This document shows, piece by piece, positions 13,935 through 25,403 of a stretch of DNA of 64,000 bases (within the stretch, counting starts at the first letter, position 1; every line of letters starts with the position of its first letter). The stretch covers positions 576,001-640,000 of the forward strand of contig CAVWWD010000005.1 of assembly GCA_963758635.1 (NCBI GenBank). Reading direction: 5' to 3'. The stretch is from an uncultured Candidatus Rokubacteria bacterium (GTDB taxonomy: Bacteria; Methylomirabilota; Methylomirabilia; Rokubacteriales; CSP1-6). A program made the position numbers and the translations under genes. The notes under the pieces are model-generated. The model saw only the letters and a list, made by a program, of their open reading frames with translations, was not told where the DNA came from and searched no databases.

Positions 13935-14690
13935 TCAGTACACCTGCGATCGCTGGGTGGTCTTGATCAGGCGCTGGATCTCCTCGTCGGTGAAGCCGCC
14001 GAGCTGACGGGCCTCGGTCGCGATCGAGATCAGCACCTGCTCGTGGTCGCCATCCTGGCGGACGCCGCCCAGGTTGAATCGCTCGTCGATGCTCTCCTGG
14101 AACTCGATGGCGCGGCGACGTCGCTCGGGATCACCCTCGGTCAGCTTGGTGAGCCACTTCGATCCCATCCGGACGTGCGTGATCTCGTCGGCGAGCACGA
14201 AGTCGACGGCGCGCTCGATGATCGGGTCGCCCATCTTGCGCGCGATGTGAACGAGCTGGTTGAAGACATCGCAGGCGAGCCCCTCGAGCCCGCGGTTCAC
14301 CCCCGCGACACGCGCGGCGGCGTCCTCGGCGCACGCGCATCGCCACAGGATCGTCGTCTCCGGGAACTCGCCCGGATAGCCGTCGAGGTGCTCGAGGAGC
14401 CGCAGGTAGATCTCGAGGTGGCGCGACTCGTCCCACACCTGCCGCGCCATGTCCATGGTGAACTCCCATGGCGCATCGGGGAAATCGCAGACTGTGCGCC
14501 CCGCGCCCTCCATGGCCTGCATCTCGCCGACCATGATTCCGTGCGCCCGCTCCTTGATGGACTCACGGCTCGAGAGGTCAGGGAACGGCGGCAGTCCCTG
14601 GTCGACCTTGACCTGGGCAACGTCGCGGGCCCGCATCCGGACGAAGCGGTCCTCGCGAGCCAGCTTGTCGTAGGCGATGGGACGTTCCAT
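13935..14690 (-). CDS. ferritin-like diiron protein (DUF455-like)
   Basis: E..A, DESRH, LEG.A.D and DEITHV..G.KW give the E/ExxH/E/ExxH ligand pattern. Confidence 0.8.
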   Translation of the reverse strand: MERPIAYDKLAREDRFVRMRARDVAQVKVDQGLPPFPDLSSRESIKERAHGIMVGEMQAMEGAGRTVCDFPDAPWEFTMDMARQVWDESRHLEIYLRLLEHLDGYPGEFPETTILWRCACAEDAAARVAGVNRGLEGLACDVFNQLVHIARKMGDPIIERAVDFVLADEITHVRMGSKWLTKLTEGDPERRRRAIEFQESIDERFNLGGVRQDGDHEQVLISIATEARQLGGFTDEEIQRLIKTTQRSQVY

Positions 14691-16004: not shown

Positions 16005-16574
16005 CTACGCGGCCGGGCCCCCGAGGCCGATCTGCGGGGCGACGCCGGTGAGGGCGCCGATGACGAAGGCGAGGTGCGCCTCGAGCGGCACCCCCAGCTC
16101 TTCGGCGCCGCGGTACACGTCGGCCCGGTTCACCGTGCGCGCGAAGCCCTTGTCCTTGAGCTTCTTCACGACCGAGGCTGGCTCGAGGCCGGCGATGGCG
16201 CGGCCGGGCCGGACGAGCGCGCAGGCGGTCACGAACCCGGCCGGCTCATCGCAGGCGTACAGCGCCCGGTCGAGGAGAGACGCGCGCGGGCACCCTGAGT
16301 AGTCGGCGTGCGCGAGGATCGCGTACACGATCTCGCGGGAGACGCCGCGGCTCAGGAGGATCTCCGCGCCCTTCAGCGGGTGACGGGGCGCCGTGGGATG
16401 CATCTCGTAGTCGAAGTCGTGCAGGATTCCCGCGACGCCCCACGCCTCGGGGTCGGCGCCCGAGCGCTCGGCGTAGGCGCGCATCGCCGCCTCCACGGCC
16501 AGGGCGTGCTTGCGGAGGCTGTCGGACAGCGTGAACTCGGTGAGGATCCGCCACGCGCGCTCCCTGTCGATCAT
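16005..16574 (-). CDS. HD/HDIG domain metal-dependent phosphohydrolase
   Basis: KHALAVEA.M, GILHDFD and ACDE. Confidence 0.9.
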   Translation of the reverse strand: MIDRERAWRILTEFTLSDSLRKHALAVEAAMRAYAERSGADPEAWGVAGILHDFDYEMHPTAPRHPLKGAEILLSRGVSREIVYAILAHADYSGCPRASLLDRALYACDEPAGFVTACALVRPGRAIAGLEPASVVKKLKDKGFARTVNRADVYRGAEELGVPLEAHLAFVIGALTGVAPQIGLGGPAA

Positions 16575-16587
16575 GGACCCCGTCGTC

Positions 16588-17241
16588 CTACGAGCGTACG
16601 GACTGGCGCAGGGCCTCGAGCTCCTGCTCGAGCGACTGGATGCGATCCATCAGGTGCTCGACGGCGCGGGCGAGCGGATCTGGCAAGTCCACCTGGTTCA
16701 GGTCGATCTCCCCCGTCACGCGTTGGCCGTCACGGAAGGTCACCCGGCCCGGCACGCCGACCACGACCGAGTTGGCGGGCACCTCCCGCACCACCACCGA
16801 GCCTGCGCCGATCCGGCTGCCCTCGCCGATCGTGAAGGACCCGAGGACCTTGGCGCCCGCCCCGACCACGACGTTGTCGCCCAGGGTCGGGTGCCGCTTC
16901 TCGCGGCGAAGGCTCGTGCCACCGAGCGTCACGCCCTGAAGGAGGGTCACGTTCTCCCCGATCTCGGCGGTCTCGCCGATGACCACGCCCATCCCGTGAT
17001 CGATGAAGAGACCGTCGCCGAGCTTGGCCGCGGGGTGGATCTCGACGCCAGTGATGAACCGGTTCAGATGGGAGAGGAGCCGCGCCGGCGTCGCCCACCC
17101 TGACTGCCAGAGCCGGTGGGCCACTCGGTGGAACCAGATCGCGTGGACACCCGGGTAGCACATGACCACCTCGAGCGCCGACCGTGCCGCGGGGTCACGC
17201 TCGAGGACGGTTCGCACGTCCCGCTTCATGCGTTCAAACAC
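16588..17241 (-). CDS. cysE: serine O-acetyltransferase
   Basis: [32 protein letters not shown] and KRHPT. Confidence 0.97.
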
Positions 17242-17647
17242 GGCTTGCTCCTCCCTCGTCGTTGGTGGCGCGCCCGGCTTCCGCCCGTACGCGCCCGTCC
17301 CGAGCCGCAGCCCGGATGGCCGCGCTCACCACCTCGGCGGCGTGTCGACGGTCGTCGGGCAGGCCGCCCACCGCGGCCTCGACGCGGCCCGCGGGCAACT
17401 CCTCGACCTCGGACAGCGGTAGGCCCGCGATCAGCTCCGTACCCGCGCTCGACGTCGCGATGGTGGGGCCGCACCCGTAGGTCTGGAATCGCGCCTCCTC
17501 CACTCGCCCTCCGCGGATGCGGAGGTACACACGGGCCAGATCCATGCAGTCCCGATCCTCGGCCTCGCCGACGCCATCCGGGTTCCGCATCATCCCCGCG
17601 TTGCGGGGATTGCGAAAGTGATCGATGAGCGTCTGGCTGTAGCGCAC
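17234..17647 (-). CDS. IscU/NifU-N-like protein lacking the third Cys
   Basis: YS...IDHF.NPRN.G, C.D and F.TYGCG; LPPVKIHC replaced by LPDDRRHA. Confidence 0.85.
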
Positions 17648-17728: not shown

Positions 17729-18883
17729 CTAGGCCCGCACGGGCGACGCGCTCCGGAGCTTGGCCACGAGCGTCTCCACGGCGTCGACCACGTAGTCGAT
17801 GTCCTCGACGCTGGTGCCCCGGCCGAGGGAGCACCGGACCGCCCCCATCGCCCACGGGATGGGGATGCCCATCGCCACCAGCACGTACGAGGGCTCCACG
17901 TTCCCCGAGGTGCAGGCCGACCCGGCCGACACTCCGATTCCCTTCAGATCCAGCCCGAGAACGACCGATTCGGACTCCACCCGGTGGAAGGACATGTTGC
18001 ACGTGCCGGGCAGGCGATGCGTGGGGTGCCCGTTCACCCGCACCTCGGGCACGTGGGCGCTGACGCCCTCCCAGAGGCGGTCACGGAGGCCGGTGAGCCG
18101 CACCGCCTCGGCGGCCATGTCGCGGGCGCGGACCTCGACCGCCTTGCCGAAGCCCACGACCCCCGCCACGTTCTCGGTGCCGGCGCGGCGCCGGCGCTCG
18201 TGCTCCCCGCCGTGCTGGACCGACACCATCTTCGTGCCCCGGCGCACGTAGAGACCCGCCACGCCTTTGGGCCCGTAGATCTTGTGGCTGGAGAACGACA
18301 GGAGGTCGATGCCGAGCGCGTCCAGGTCCAGCGGGAGCTTGCCGAACGTCTGAACGGCATCCACGTGGAAGGGAATCCCGTGCTCGCGCGCGACGCGCCC
18401 GATCTCCGCGACGGGCTGGACCGTGCCGACCTCGGAGTTCGCGTGCATGACCGTCACGAGGATCGTCTCCGGCCGGACCGCGCGCCGGACGTCGTCGGGA
18501 TCGACGAGGCCGTGGCCATCCACGGGTAGGTACGTCACCGTGAAGCCCTGTTGTTCGAGCGCCTGGCAGGCGCGGAGCACCGCATGGTGCTCGATGGCGG
18601 AGGTCACGATGTGCCCTCCACGTCGGGCGGTGGCCACGCCCTTGACGGCGAGGTTGTCCGACTCGGTGCCGCCGGACGTGAAGACGATCTCCTCCTTGCT
18701 CACGCGCAGGAACGACGCGATCTGCTCGCGCGCCGCGTCCAGGCCCTCACGCGCCTCGCGGCCGAAGCCGTGGACGCTCGAGGGGTTGCCGAAGCGTTCG
18801 GTGAGATACGGAAGCATCGCGTCCAGCGCCTCGGGGTGCAGGGGCGTCGATGCGTTGTGATCGAGATAGACTCGTCGGCTCAT
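17729..18883 (-). CDS. group I cysteine desulfurase (NifS/IscS-type), catalytic residues intact
   Basis: YLDHNASTP, EHHA, DAVQ, SSHKIYGPKG, RAGTEN and SAGSACTS. Confidence 0.95.
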   Translation of the reverse strand: MSRRVYLDHNASTPLHPEALDAMLPYLTERFGNPSSVHGFGREAREGLDAAREQIASFLRVSKEEIVFTSGGTESDNLAVKGVATARRGGHIVTSAIEHHAVLRACQALEQQGFTVTYLPVDGHGLVDPDDVRRAVRPETILVTVMHANSEVGTVQPVAEIGRVAREHGIPFHVDAVQTFGKLPLDLDALGIDLLSFSSHKIYGPKGVAGLYVRRGTKMVSVQHGGEHERRRRAGTENVAGVVGFGKAVEVRARDMAAEAVRLTGLRDRLWEGVSAHVPEVRVNGHPTHRLPGTCNMSFHRVESESVVLGLDLKGIGVSAGSACTSGNVEPSYVLVAMGIPIPWAMGAVRCSLGRGTSVEDIDYVVDAVETLVAKLRSASPVRA

Positions 18884-18921
18884 TGACCTCGTCCTCCTCG
18901 CGATGCTACGCTGACGCCGGC

Positions 18922-19239
18922 ATGACGCTCGCCGGACGCAAGCTCGGACTGATGCTCTCCACCGCGCCCGAGCACGCCAACCTCGCCACCGCCGTCGGCC
19001 TCTCCTCCGCGGCCCTCGATCGCGGCCTCTCCGTGTACCTGTACCTGATCGACGATGCGGTCGCCGCCGTCGAGCACCCCCTCGTGCAGGGGCTGGCCGA
19101 CCGCGGCGCCAGGCTCTTCGTGTGCGCCTACGGCTGCCAGAAGCGCCGGCGGCCGCTGTCCGACCGGGCCACGAACTGCGGCCTCGTCGTGCTCGGCGAC
19201 GTGATCAGCGGAACGGACCGCTTCCTCTCCCTCAACTGA
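18922..19239 (+). CDS. DsrE/TusD-like sulfur relay protein
   Basis: Size about 105 aa; LYLIDDAV, LFVCAYGC..R (active-site-type Cys) and GL..L...I...DRF. Confidence 0.75.
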   Translation: MTLAGRKLGLMLSTAPEHANLATAVGLSSAALDRGLSVYLYLIDDAVAAVEHPLVQGLADRGARLFVCAYGCQKRRRPLSDRATNCGLVVLGDVISGTDRFLSLN

Positions 19240-19249
19240 CGGCCGCCGC

Positions 19250-19606
19250 GTGGCCGCCAGCCCCTCGGTGCTCGTGATCGTCTCGGAGGATCCGCGCGTG
19301 TCCCACCGCGCGAGCGAGGCGCTCAGGATCGCGCTCGGCGTCGCGGCCAGCGACATCGACGTCGTCGTGGTGCTGAGCGGGCCCGCCGCGCACCTGCTCG
19401 ATGCCGACACCGACGATCTGGTGGACGGCGACGACATCGCGAAGGTCCGCGGCTCCCTCCGCACGATGGGGGTCCGCATCCACGTCGCCGCGGACGCCAT
19501 CCCGGCCGACCCCGACTGGAATGCCGAAGGGCATCCCGTCACTCCGGTGGGCCCCGCGGACGTGGCCGCGCTCCTCGAGCGAACCACGCGCTCGATCGTG
19601 TTCTGA
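19250..19606 (+). CDS. DsrF/TusC-like protein
   Basis: DP..S.RA.EALRIALG motif; middle gene of the trio. Confidence 0.65.
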   Translation: MAASPSVLVIVSEDPRVSHRASEALRIALGVAASDIDVVVVLSGPAAHLLDADTDDLVDGDDIAKVRGSLRTMGVRIHVAADAIPADPDWNAEGHPVTPVGPADVAALLERTTRSIVF

Positions 19607-19836
19607 TGCCCCGCCACCTGCACCTCCTCCGGTCCGACTCGGCCGGCGTCGCCGGCCCGGCGATCGAGGCCGGCGCGGCACGGCCGGACACCGAGATCAC
19701 CGTGGTGCTGCTCGACGACGCCCCGCCGCCCCGCCTCCCCGCGGCCGCCCGCGTGCTCACCCTCGGGGCGGGCGGCCTCGACTACGCGGCGCTCCTCGAC
19801 CTCATCTTCCAGAGCGACCACGTCGTCAGCTGGTGA
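19606..19836 (+). CDS. DsrH/TusB-like protein
   Basis: N-terminal LHLL and C-terminal LDYAALLDLI...DHVVSW typical of DsrH/TusB. Confidence 0.65.
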   Translation: MPRHLHLLRSDSAGVAGPAIEAGAARPDTEITVVLLDDAPPPRLPAAARVLTLGAGGLDYAALLDLIFQSDHVVSW

Positions 19837-19847
19837 GGCCGAGCCTC

Positions 19848-20048
19848 TCACCGGTCCCGGTGCTCCTCGACCCACCGCATCTGGATCGCCTCGAGGATCC
19901 CCTCGTTCGAGGCCTTGGGATCGTCGTTGAAGCCGGGGAGCTCGGTCACCCACCGGTGCAGGTCCGTGAAGCGCACGCCGAGGGGATCCGTGTCCGGGAA
20001 CGTCTCCATCAGGGCGATCGCGATGTCCTCGGCGTCCGACCATCTCAT
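19848..20048 (-). CDS. iscX: Fe-S assembly protein IscX
   Basis: W.D..DIAI.L, DP..VRFTDL, DDP..SNE.ILEAIQ..W. Confidence 0.95.
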   Translation of the reverse strand: MRWSDAEDIAIALMETFPDTDPLGVRFTDLHRWVTELPGFNDDPKASNEGILEAIQMRWVEEHRDR

Positions 20049-20061
20049 GGCGCGGGCTCCC

Positions 20062-20384
20062 TCACTTCGGAATCTCGACCACGACGTCGCCCTTGACCAC
20101 GGCCTGGCAGCCGAGCCGCGAGTGCAGCGTCAGGCCTTCCGCGGTGTCGAGGCGATCCTCCTCGTCCGGCTCCATCGGCGACAGGTTCGCCTCCCCTTCC
20201 CGGACGATCACGTGGCACGTCGTGCACGCGCAGCTGCCGCCGCAGTTGTGCTCGAGGTGGATGTCGTTGGCCAGGGCGATGTCGAGCAGCGAGCCCGGAC
20301 GCCCGTGGTCGGCGAGGGGGTAGGCGTCCTCGTCCACCTCGACGGTCACGTTGAGCGGCAGGAAGGTCACCCGATGCCTGGCCA

Positions 20385-20388
<4 letters not shown>
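20062..20388 (-). CDS. fdx: ISC [2Fe-2S] ferredoxin
   Basis: EH.CGGSCACTTCHV...SRLGCQ. Confidence 0.95.
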
Positions 20389-22188
<1,800 letters not shown>

Positions 22189-22211
<23 letters not shown>

Positions 22212-22779
22212 GCGTGTCCGTGTCCTCTCCCAGGGCTTCACCCAGGTCGTCGATCACCGTGCGCAGATAGGCGCGCGCGGCGAGCCGGGCCGTGAACCAC
22301 TCGAGGAGCGCGGATCGGTCGCCGGGCGCCGCCCGGTCCCACTCCGCGAAGCGCCCCACGATCGACCGATCCTCCCGTTCCCGCCACTCCACGAGGCGCC
22401 GGCGTTCGGCCTCGAGCCGCGCCCGCGTCTCGCCGTCGAGCCCGCCGGCCTTCGCCTCGAGCAGCGCTTCCTGGATCTCCATCATCTCCTCCAGGAGCTC
22501 CCGCGGCGCTCGCGGCTTCGCCTCCGCGCCCTCGCGCGTGTCCCGGCCCTCCTCGAGGCGGATCAGGTAGTCCACCCGGGCGAGCGGGTCACGCAGGGCG
22601 CGATAGGCCCGGTTCACCGCCGCGGACGCGTTCAAGGCCTGGGCCTGCGCGTCGGCCGGGGCCGCCTGATGGAAGTCCGGGTGGTGCGCGCGCGACAGCT
22701 CGTAGAAGCGCCGCTGCAGCGCGGCAGCGTCCACCTCGAGCTTCCGCGGAAGGCCGAACACCGAGAAGTAGTCGTCCAT
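22189..22779 (-). CDS. hscB: Fe-S assembly J-domain co-chaperone
   Basis: DYF..F.LP, HPD and N.AY..L.DP..R..Y. Confidence 0.93.
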
Positions 22780-22889: not shown

Positions 22890-23216
22890 CTACGCCGTGA
22901 ACGAGGTTCCACAGCCGCACGTCGATTTCGCCTGGGGGTTGACGAAGGTGAAGCCCCCCGTCAGCCCCTCCGTCACGTAGTCGAGCGTGATGCCGTTCAG
23001 GTAGAGGTAGCTCTTGGCGTCGCAGACCACAGGGACGCCATCGATCTCGAACTTCTTGTCGTGCTTGCCGACCTCGCTATCGAACTCCAGCGAGTACGAC
23101 AGGCCGGAGCAGCCTCCGCCCTTCACACCCATTCGAAGATAAACGTTCTCCAGGTTCTGCTCCTTGAGGAGCTTTCTCACCTGGGTCGCCGCCTTCTCCG
23201 TCAACGCCAGCGCCAT
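22890..23216 (-). CDS. iscA: A-type Fe-S carrier
   Basis: GGGCSGLSY and NP.AKSTCGCG.SF. Confidence 0.95.
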   Translation of the reverse strand: MALALTEKAATQVRKLLKEQNLENVYLRMGVKGGGCSGLSYSLEFDSEVGKHDKKFEIDGVPVVCDAKSYLYLNGITLDYVTEGLTGGFTFVNPQAKSTCGCGTSFTA

Positions 23217-23244: not shown

Positions 23245-23667
23245 CTAGGCTTGGGATGGCGCCGCGCCCGAGGGCGCTTCCGACGCCGTCCACTTGTCCT
23301 TGTAGTCGGCGAGGGCAGCCTTGATCGCGTCCTCGGCGAGCACGGAGCAGTGGATCTTCACCGGCGGAAGCTTCAGCTCGCTGACGATGTCGGTGTTCTT
23401 GATCTTCGCCGCCTCGTCCACCGTGCGGCCCTTCAGCCACTCCGTGGCGAGGCTCGATGAGGCGATGGCGCTGCCGCAGCCGAACGTCTTGAACTTCGCG
23501 TCCTCGATGACCCCCGTCTCGATGTTCACCTTGATCTGGAGCTTCATGACGTTGCCGCACTCCGGCGCACCCACCAGCCCCGTCCCCACGCCCGGGGTGC
23601 TCTTGTCGAACGACCCGACGTTGCGGGGGTTGCTGTAGTGATCGACCACCTTCTCGCTGTAGGACAT
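23245..23667 (-). CDS. iscU: Fe-S scaffold IscU (Asp39->Asn variant)
   Basis: YSEKVVDHY.NPRN, GAPECGNVM, FGCGSAIASS and LPPVKIHCS. Confidence 0.97.
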   Translation of the reverse strand: MSYSEKVVDHYSNPRNVGSFDKSTPGVGTGLVGAPECGNVMKLQIKVNIETGVIEDAKFKTFGCGSAIASSSLATEWLKGRTVDEAAKIKNTDIVSELKLPPVKIHCSVLAEDAIKAALADYKDKWTASEAPSGAAPSQA

Positions 23668-23690: not shown

Positions 23691-24917
23691 CTATTCGGCC
23701 TTCCAGTGGATGGACTTCAGATCCACGCCCTCTTTCGCCAGCTCGTAGAGCGGCGACATCTCACGCAGCCGGTGCACCACCTCCACCGTCCGTCCCGCCA
23801 CGTGGTCCACCTCGTCCTCCGTGGTGAACCGATGCACCCCGAAGCGGATCGACGAGTGGGCGAGCTCGGAGTCCACGCCCAGCGCCGAGATCACGTACGA
23901 CGGCTCGAGGGTCGCCGACGTGCAGGCGGAGCCGGAGGACAGGGCGACTTCCTTGTTCAGCCCCATGAGCACGGACTCGCCCTCGACGTAGGCGAACGAC
24001 ACGTTCAGATTGTGGGGGAGACGGCGCTCGGGATGTCCGTTGAGGAACGCCTCATCGACCTTGGACAGGATGGCCTCCTGCAGGCGGTCCCGGAGAACGG
24101 CCATGCGCTTGCTCTCCTCCGGCATGACCTCGCGGCAGATCTCCGCCGCGCGCCCGAAGCCCACGGCGAGAGGCACGGGGATCGTGCCGGAGCGCATGCC
24201 GCGCTCGTGTCCACCACCGTCCATCATGGCGGACAGGCGCACCCGCGGCCCCTTGCGGCGGACGTACAGCGCGCCCACGCCCTTCGGCCCGTACAGCAGG
24301 TGGGCGGTGCACGAGAGCAGATCGATGCCCATGCCCTCCACGTCGACCGGGACTTTGCCGACCGCCTGGGTGGCATCGGTATGGAAGATGATGCCCTTCT
24401 CCTTGGCGAGCTTGCCGATGTCCGCCACCTGCTGGACGGTCCCGATCTCGTTGTTCGCGAACATCACGGAGAGCAGGATGGTCTTCGGCGTGATGGCGGC
24501 CCGGAGCGCCTCCACGTCGACGAGGCCGTCCCGTCCGACGCCCACGTAGCTCACCTCGAACCCCTGGCGTTCGAGGCGCTTGCAGACGTCGAGGCCCGCG
24601 CGCTGCTCGATGCGGGTCGTGACGATGTGGTTGCCCTTCTCCCGGTACATCTCGGATACGCCCTTGAGAGCCAGGTTGATGGCCTCGGTGCCACCCGACG
24701 TGAAGATGATCTCCTTCGCGTCGCGGGCCCCGATCAGGCCGGCCAGCTGCTCACGGGCGCGGTCCACGCCGGATTCCGCCTCCCAGCCGAAGGAGTGGTT
24801 GCGGCTCGCCGGGTGACCGAACCGCTCGGTGAAGTACGGCAGCATGGCCTCGACCACGCGGGGATCCGCGGGGGTCGTGGACTGACTGTCCATGAAGATC
24901 GGGAACCTGACGGCCAT
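23691..24917 (-). CDS. iscS: IscS homologue lacking the PLP-binding Lys
   Basis: IscS-specific features (SRNHSFGW, SSGSACTSATLEPSYV, LREMSPLYE) but TAHLLYGPKG and EQRA at the PLP site. Confidence 0.92.
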   Translation of the reverse strand: MAVRFPIFMDSQSTTPADPRVVEAMLPYFTERFGHPASRNHSFGWEAESGVDRAREQLAGLIGARDAKEIIFTSGGTEAINLALKGVSEMYREKGNHIVTTRIEQRAGLDVCKRLERQGFEVSYVGVGRDGLVDVEALRAAITPKTILLSVMFANNEIGTVQQVADIGKLAKEKGIIFHTDATQAVGKVPVDVEGMGIDLLSCTAHLLYGPKGVGALYVRRKGPRVRLSAMMDGGGHERGMRSGTIPVPLAVGFGRAAEICREVMPEESKRMAVLRDRLQEAILSKVDEAFLNGHPERRLPHNLNVSFAYVEGESVLMGLNKEVALSSGSACTSATLEPSYVISALGVDSELAHSSIRFGVHRFTTEDEVDHVAGRTVEVVHRLREMSPLYELAKEGVDLKSIHWKAE

Positions 24918-24931
24918 GGTTCTGCCTCTCC

Positions 24932-25375
24932 TTATCTAATGTGGCTCAGCCGGGTCACGGGCGCCGGAACGAGGGGCTCCGCGACCAGCTCGGCCAGGCT
25001 CATCGTGTCCAGCAGGCTGCTGATGCTCTTCTGGATCTTCTGGACGGGCCCCCGCAGGTTGCATCGCTCGTACTGCGGGCAGTCGTCCGTGGTCAAGCAA
25101 CTGACGATGCGCACCGGACCCTCGAGCGCCCTGACGACCTCCCCGACGGTGATCGCCTCCTGCGGCCGGGCCAGCACGTAGCCGCCCTTGGGACCGTTGT
25201 GGCTGACGATCAGGCTCTTTTTCGCCAGCTTCTGGAGGATCTTGGCGAGGAGCTCGCCGGGGATCTTGAATTCCTCGGCGATACGCTTGGCGCTGACCGC
25301 GCCGTCCGGCGATTGAGCCGCGATGTAGTGCACGGCCATCAGTCCGTAGTCGGCGCGCTTGGTGAATCTCAGCAT
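24932..25375 (-). CDS. iscR: Rrf2 family Fe-S regulator IscR
   Basis: G.KGGY.LAR, ALEG and three Cys (C-x5-C-x5-C); first gene of the isc operon. Confidence 0.85.
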   Translation of the reverse strand: MLRFTKRADYGLMAVHYIAAQSPDGAVSAKRIAEEFKIPGELLAKILQKLAKKSLIVSHNGPKGGYVLARPQEAITVGEVVRALEGPVRIVSCLTTDDCPQYERCNLRGPVQKIQKSISSLLDTMSLAELVAEPLVPAPVTRLSHIR

Positions 25376-25403
25376 CCCTGATCTCTTCTCCCTGCCGGCC
25401 ATT

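Follow-up and report, generated by a model that had tools for sequence, protein, structure and literature searches.

The IscS homologue encoded in the isc operon of this Rokubacteriales genome has neither the Schiff-base Lys nor the PLP-stacking His of its E. coli counterpart and is very probably a pseudoenzyme. Lys-less, inactive IscS is already known; here it forms part of a complete ISC operon of the E. coli kind and is found across a family. The gene (hereafter Lys-less iscS1; product P0001, 408 aa) is an unbroken open reading frame at 23691..24917 of the window, i.e., of the whole stretch of 64,000 nucleotides that was analysed. It lies on the minus strand, as do all features below unless stated otherwise.

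The active site and the operon

Alignment with E. coli IscS (RefSeq), to which P0001 is 55% identical, places Leu207 (CTG, 24297..24299) at the K206 position and Gln105 (24603..24605) at the H104 position, as the sequence-only reading of this DNA had claimed. That reading also described a full-length frame in which the Cys loop, RSGT, DATQ and the IscU-binding tail are kept, and the alignment bears this out for the loop cysteine C332 (E. coli C328; 23922..23924), T245 (E. coli T243), D180, Q183 and the tail; H205 and R354 of the E. coli enzyme are retained as well. The tail runs for 18 residues past E. coli L386 and is part of the predicted IscU-binding segment (23691..23747). A third change that is fixed in the clade, I80, was identified in the orthologue alignment beside the phosphate-binding motif (24678..24680).

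The E. coli variants H104Q, Q183E and K206A are each reported to be inactive, with some PLP binding and the trapping of cysteine adducts retained (PMC9978102). P0001 carries two such lesions together (H104Q and K206L), and because the equivalent E. coli mutants are inactive it would be expected to have no desulfurase activity, which supports the earlier suggestion of a probable pseudoenzyme. Of the features of an active IscS, P0001 has the type I SSGSAC-loop Cys and RSGT, the fold-type I class V fold and profile, the isc operon and the docking surfaces, but not Lys206 (L207) or His104 (Q105). The other PLP-pocket residues examined (T77, N156, D181, Q184, H206, T245, and R358) were kept in 88/88 orthologues of families f1 and f5, and since the rest of the pocket is invariant, non-covalent binding of PLP or PMP is likely. 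Such PLP binding is compatible with the protein being a pseudoenzyme. Within f1 and f5, K113 at a surface Arg position is the only Lys or His to have become fixed anew. Rescue by the Lys of the GPKG motif (K212), which had been raised as a way in which the enzyme might remain active, is ruled out, as this Lys is also invariant in Lys-bearing relatives (7/7 and 24/24); in the predicted model it is located at the dimer interface.

The operon order is Rrf2 regulator-iscS-iscU-iscA-hscB-hscA-fdx-iscX. The Rrf2-family regulator in the iscR position (24932..25402) passed the superfamily cut-off and failed the IscR cut-off in the profile search. Profile searches also identified iscU1, which encodes a scaffold with three Cys that were located by alignment (23245..23667), as well as hscB (22189..22779) and iscX (19848..20048). 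The iscA-type carrier (22890..23216) scored below the equivalog cut-off and the 2Fe-2S ferredoxin (20062..20388) scored 91.4 bits with fdx_isc, below its cut-off of 132.1; hscA is given as called (20385..22241), and its real start is probably a few codons inward. P0001 itself passed PRK14012 (600.6 bits, cut-off 548) and failed TIGR02006 (578.7 bits, cut-off 643.2). Because it passes an NCBIfam IscS equivalog cut-off in PRK14012, with TIGR02006 below, annotation pipelines would label the Lys-less protein as an active desulfurase, and this in considerably more than one hundred species. A promoter and terminator scan gave no signal exceeding chance. In IscU1 residue 39 is Asn (AAC, 23551-23553) in this assembly only, D (GAC) being found in 91/92 genomes, and this may be a strain change or an assembly error; IscU D39A is reported to be inactive in vivo (PMC8918507).

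Downstream of iscX, three small ORFs resembling DsrE/F/H (TusD/C/B) lie on the plus strand (18850..19836), and this trio between iscX and iscS2 is kept across the order. Pfam PF02635 was found in the middle ORF only; the outer two we take to be DsrE/F/H-like by their position and a motif. They are followed by iscS2, encoding a NifS-like desulfurase homologue (17729..18883; profile search and alignment), by iscU2, encoding a NifU_N-domain protein in which His-Ala replaces His-Cys so that the third Cys is missing (17234..17647; alignment), and by the serine acetyltransferase gene cysE (16588..17241; 244.4 bits, cut-off 210.65). Homologues of iscU2 were without the third Cys wherever the region was aligned, in both Lys-bearing and Lys-less genomes, and it is possible that iscU2 encodes a sulfur carrier and not a scaffold. 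Downstream of cysE the window further holds genes for an HD-domain protein (16005-16574), found at the same place in f1 relatives, and for a DUF455 protein (13935-14690).

Distribution, selection and a second loss

The residue losses were followed in 88 translated orthologues from families f1 and f5, a subset picked for genus spread and intact clusters. All of them have Q105 and none has Lys at position 207, which is Leu in 62 and Met in 26. I80 and T204 were found in 88/88, as were C332 and T245 of the RSGT motif, and position 80 is D in 7/7 Lys-bearing orthologues. An IscS1 orthologue was recovered in 137/158 genomes of family f1. A pattern for the Lys-less motif (His-hydrophobic-x-Tyr/His-Gly-Pro-Lys-Gly), run on genome DNA, matched in 139/158 f1 genomes, in the single f5 genome (1/1) and in 0/91 of the remaining genomes of the phylum; as a control, the pattern was reversed and gave one match in 251. 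The f1 orthologue in G173 gave no match to the pattern but is Lys-less too. Both H and K are present in 7/7 canonical orthologues of families f3 and f4, likewise in a partial f2 gene, and in 84/84 IscS from outside the order, which served as chance control. Further orthologues, 78-85% identical, occur in Rokubacteria and Methylomirabilota records and were left out of the Rokubacterial counts, as they may overlap the surveyed genomes. Among 80 f1 and f5 sequences the codon at 207 is CTG in 36, CTC in 19, TTG in 2, and ATG in 23. The concentration of Met207 (ATG) in early-branching genera of the tree suggests a codon path from AAG through ATG to CTG.

All Rokubacteriales IscS1, including those that bear H and K, share N35H, A76G and a Ser at E. 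coli A11 (H35, G76, and S13 in P0001; 24810-24815 region and 24690-24692), positions at which IscS from outside the order has N35 in 84/84 and A76 in 81/84. As these changes are present even in the H/K-bearing proteins, the active site may have shifted already in the ancestor of the order.

Pairwise dN/dS (NG86) was obtained from 93 genomes in which iscS1, iscS2, and hscA were all recovered, and pairs with dS below 0.05 or saturated were dropped; the pairs are non-independent, related and GC-rich, and compressed dS tends to inflate the ratio. Within genera the ratio was 0.090 for the Lys-less iscS1 (177 pairs, maximum 0.20), 0.152 for iscS2 and 0.150 for hscA; between genera the three values were 0.163, 0.225 and 0.245, respectively. 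For the Lys-bearing f4 iscS1 it was 0.103, from 10 between-genus pairs whose depth is unmatched to that of the Lys-less set. Of the two desulfurase genes, the Lys-less one is under the stronger constraint; in a set of 80 sequences 177/408 columns are invariant in the Lys-less IscS1 vs. 118/384 in IscS2. Soil, bog, and rhizosphere samples contain near-identical copies of this DNA. One contig of a soil RNA library agrees with positions 24037-24317 in every letter (0 differences); the L207 codon falls within this match, at a distance of 18 letters from the contig end. Such contigs indicate the presence of the DNA and not its transcription. One read-derived record over Q105 shows 3 differences, the places of which are unlisted.

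A second loss was observed in genus g30 of family f4, where IscS1 keeps K206 and carries H104Q, Q183E, and S203T in 10/10 genomes, with a dN/dS of 0.078. When the five diagnostic columns were removed, the IscS1 tree placed the Lys-less proteins in one clade (SH-aLRT 96.9) and joined g30 to canonical f4 (SH-aLRT 97.5). Similarly, a tree built from five genes of the neighbourhood (46 rows) grouped f4 with g30 at 100 and placed the His/Lys-bearing f2 as sister of f1 and f5 at 98.7, and on this tree the His/Gln state requires two changes and the Lys state one. A single origin of H104Q in g30 and in f1 and f5 is ruled out (p-AU 0.0016), the constrained group having been defined by residue state and chosen after the IscS1 tree was known. 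Genus g30 thus lost the site independently of f1 and f5, by another route to a dead enzyme.

Docking surfaces, IscS2 and the sulfur supply

In E. coli numbering the Lys-less IscS1 keeps R220/R223/R225, G234, R237, A327, and a tail of 17-18 residues in 88/88 orthologues. The equivalent E. coli surfaces are reported to bind ferredoxin, IscX, and IscU (PMC3750173, PMC2854127), and deletion of residues 374-404 to abolish IscU binding (PMC2854127). The Arg patch of P0001 (R221/R225/R227, 24237..24257) is accordingly a predicted docking site for ferredoxin and IscX (alignment; PMC2854127, Table 3; PMC3750173). Conservation thus suggests that dimerisation and partner binding are retained, probably together with a non-covalent B6 cofactor. 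IscS2, 49% identical to the Lys-less IscS1, has the complementary pattern. H104, D180, Q183, K206, C328, and R354 are intact in 82/82 sequences; R223 is missing in 82/82, G234 is replaced by E or D, and the protein ends 0-2 residues past L386. The loss of docking surfaces in IscS2 complements the Lys-less IscS1, and judged from these residues catalysis and docking appear to be split between two genes. IscS2 also deviates at two further positions, with Ser at N155 (82/82) and Ser at T12, and because both are altered its activity is only assumed.

The iscS2 gene is present in 139/158 f1 and 18/21 f4 genomes and is fragmented in two g30 loci. It begins 4.8 kb downstream of iscS1 here, and in relatives the two genes mostly share a contig, some 5 kb apart. 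A search for IscS2 across the class gave only homologues of 50-59% in other orders, which may or may not be orthologues and were left out of the comparisons. Genera with H and K in IscS1 show an equally tight linkage, which is therefore not specific to the dead form. As sufB was found in only 30/158 f1 genomes, ISC is probably the main Fe-S pathway in most of them; in this genome, which is 87% complete, no SufBD domain or sufB was found. Two other loci of this genome (G000:C2:59043-63312 and C5:145209-146696) hold desulfurase genes whose motifs look intact, one for a nadA-linked NifS that lies behind a NUDIX-type regulator and one for a SufS-like protein.

We lean, with reservation, towards the view that the Lys-less IscS1 is a dead platform or adaptor that relays sulfur fed by IscS2. 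It would be kept as the platform on which IscU, ferredoxin, and IscX dock. IscS2 would make the persulfide and pass it to the retained C332, either directly or via the DsrE-like proteins or IscU2, and C332 would hand the sulfur on to IscU and possibly also serve as ligand of the nascent cluster. An externally loaded platform is favoured because IscU is reported to receive sulfur in cis from the IscS subunit to which it is bound (PMC2854127) and because C332 is invariant. The role of IscS2 as donor is inferred from genomic context only, and several observations speak against it. Transfer of persulfide from a desulfurase to a dead paralogue is without precedent in the literature searched, N155 and T12 are changed in IscS2, the nadA-linked NifS and the SufS-like protein could be donors instead, and iscS2 is linked as tightly where IscS1 keeps H and K. 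Furthermore, the other PLP ligands of the Lys-less IscS1 are invariant, which a pure relay would not need and which leaves a cofactor-dependent role possible.

It is also conceivable, if unlikely, that the two proteins form a heterodimer in which IscS2 provides the sole working site, and the Lys-less subunit provides the docking surfaces and a Thr in trans to the PLP site of IscS2. The complementary surfaces and the invariant T245 would fit this arrangement. The heterodimer was also predicted, with an ipSAE of 0.93 vs. 0.00 for the best control, a contact agreement of at least 97% between runs and a partner pLDDT of 92; the ipSAE mark was reached by 116/157 solved complexes and 2/215 mismatched pairs in the benchmark. 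However, such a pass is expected from the likeness to solved IscS homodimers, and close cousins of true partners pass too, so that the prediction speaks for structural compatibility only. As IscU accepts sulfur in cis, IscU on the Lys-less subunit would still meet a loop that cannot be loaded by its own site. The genes are moreover in different apparent transcription units with the opposite-strand dsrE-like trio between them, and the cis PLP ligands of the Lys-less IscS1 are conserved too.

A little less probable is that the Lys-less IscS1 acts as scaffold and Cys ligand for a nascent [2Fe-2S] cluster on IscU, as proposed for Archaeoglobus fulgidus IscS. Free sulfide or some other carrier would then supply the sulfur, and IscS2 would serve tRNA thiolation or a DsrE-like relay. 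In agreement with this, iscS2 is oriented divergently to the dsrE-like trio and grouped with cysE and the two-Cys IscU2, and mnmA is present in this genome. The usual role of ferredoxin is persulfide reduction, and the conservation of both the ferredoxin gene and the ferredoxin-docking patch argues against this explanation. The A. fulgidus enzyme is reported to be inactive, to hold PMP and to lend a Cys ligand (PMC8918507, PMC7585200), which gives a precedent, but the case for sulfide in that organism rests on sulfate reduction (PMC8918507), and the near-identical holders of the DNA studied here are soil, bog, and rhizosphere samples.

Still less probable is that non-covalent PLP supports catalysis of a slow or altered kind, or that a PLP-cysteine adduct acts as a cysteine sensor gating cluster assembly. 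Seven PLP-site residues are kept in 88/88 Lys-less orthologues, whereas a paralogue of the A. fulgidus type (see below) has lost four, and the binding of PLP and the trapping of Cys adducts by E. coli K206A and H104Q (PMC9978102) would be in line with such a role. On the other hand both acid-base residues are absent, the sole new fixed Lys or His is K113 at the surface Arg position, and each single E. coli mutant is reported to be inactive already (PMC9978102). Sequencing error, or a decaying pseudogene redundant with IscS2, can practically be dismissed, as the sequence-only reading had argued from two changes in one gene: the assembly does contain a frameshift in another desulfurase gene and the unique IscU D39N, but the Lys-less form occurs in 139/158 genomes with four codons at position 207, so that the change is family-wide and not that of a single genome, the independent contig is identical at the L207 codon, more of its columns are invariant than in IscS2, and a dN/dS near 0.09, not near 1, excludes decay.

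Relation to A. fulgidus IscS and a tusA-linked paralogue

P0001 resembles E. coli IscS and human NFS1 in fold (TM 0.91-0.96), operon position, IscU tail, Arg patch, Cys loop, and most PLP ligands, and differs from them in that H104 and K206, reported to be needed for activity (PMC9978102), are replaced. Its AlphaFold model has a pLDDT of 87.5, with a TM of 0.95 to NFS1 and 0.91 to E. coli IscS, compared to 0.86-0.88 for A. fulgidus IscS (PDB 4EB5, 4HVK, 4R5F). The latter had been put forward as precedent, and this holds as far as it, too, is Lys-less and reported to be inactive, PMP-binding and a possible cluster ligand (PMC8918507), keeps the loop Cys and has an IscU partner; it does not hold as descent, the two being analogues and not orthologues. 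In A. fulgidus IscS the Lys is replaced by D, the stacking His is kept and the equivalents of H205, Q183, and R354 are missing; in P0001 K is replaced by L (L/M in the family), H104Q is present and H205, Q183, and R354 are kept. P0001 is 43-44% identical to A. fulgidus IscS vs. 55% to E. coli IscS, lacks the S-N-D-x-Y-G-P motif of the A. fulgidus type (it reads A-H-L) and, unlike the archaeal protein, belongs to a complete isc operon that includes hscBA, fdx, and iscX. A. fulgidus IscS ranks below NFS1 and E. coli IscS in searches with P0001, and in a tree with active-type outgroups but not A. fulgidus IscS, P0001 nests among Lys-bearing Rokubacteriales IscS. These comparisons suggest that the Lys-less IscS1 arose independently. 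The nearer relative of the A. fulgidus protein in this genome is a tusA-linked paralogue.

Methanosarcina acetivorans IscS1 is also Lys-less, and that genome has other, active IscS copies; it belongs to a minimal archaeal iscSU cluster, and its expression is reported to yield inclusion bodies (PMC7585200). In the literature searched, which was largely open-access, no paper on a Rokubacterial or isc-operon Lys-less IscS came up, and the available part of PMC13066941 holds nothing on inactive paralogues. A review leaves open, in the part available, the sulfur source of Lys-less IscS and the reason for its B6 cofactor (PMC8918507). A dead form in a full ISC operon with an adjacent candidate donor separates the catalytic from the scaffold role of IscS, and natural controls exist in Lys-bearing orthologues that are about 78% identical and in a second lineage inactivated by another route.

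The third type I desulfurase homologue of this genome (G000:C8:1089694-1090861, plus strand; relatives L242-L261) has Asp at the Lys position. It is frameshifted in this assembly, possibly by an assembly error. Among 20 loci of weaker homologues, 19 have Asp at the Lys position, lack H205, Q183, and R354, and keep the loop Cys, the remaining locus being a nadA-linked NifS; tusA adjoins the gene in 19/19 such loci. The N-D-x-Y-G-P-P-G motif of this paralogue was found in 137/183 genomes of the order, and among PDB entries the paralogue matches A. fulgidus IscS best (377 bits), the N-D motif being common to both. TusA is reported to take its sulfur in trans, from the other IscS subunit (PMC2854127), and a dead TusA-binding subunit with an active partner is therefore workable in principle; the residues that bind TusA in E. 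coli are poorly kept in the third paralogue. It is tempting to speculate, tentatively, that IscS2 may be the one catalyst, with the Lys-less IscS1 directing sulfur to IscU and the tusA-linked paralogue directing it to TusA, via heterodimers or loop-to-loop transfer. If so, the allocation of sulfur would be set by the levels of the adaptors and not by competition of partners for one enzyme. Selenocysteine in the third paralogue was considered and rejected: in both loci in which the alignment covered the TGA, this triplet is the one that ends the gene.
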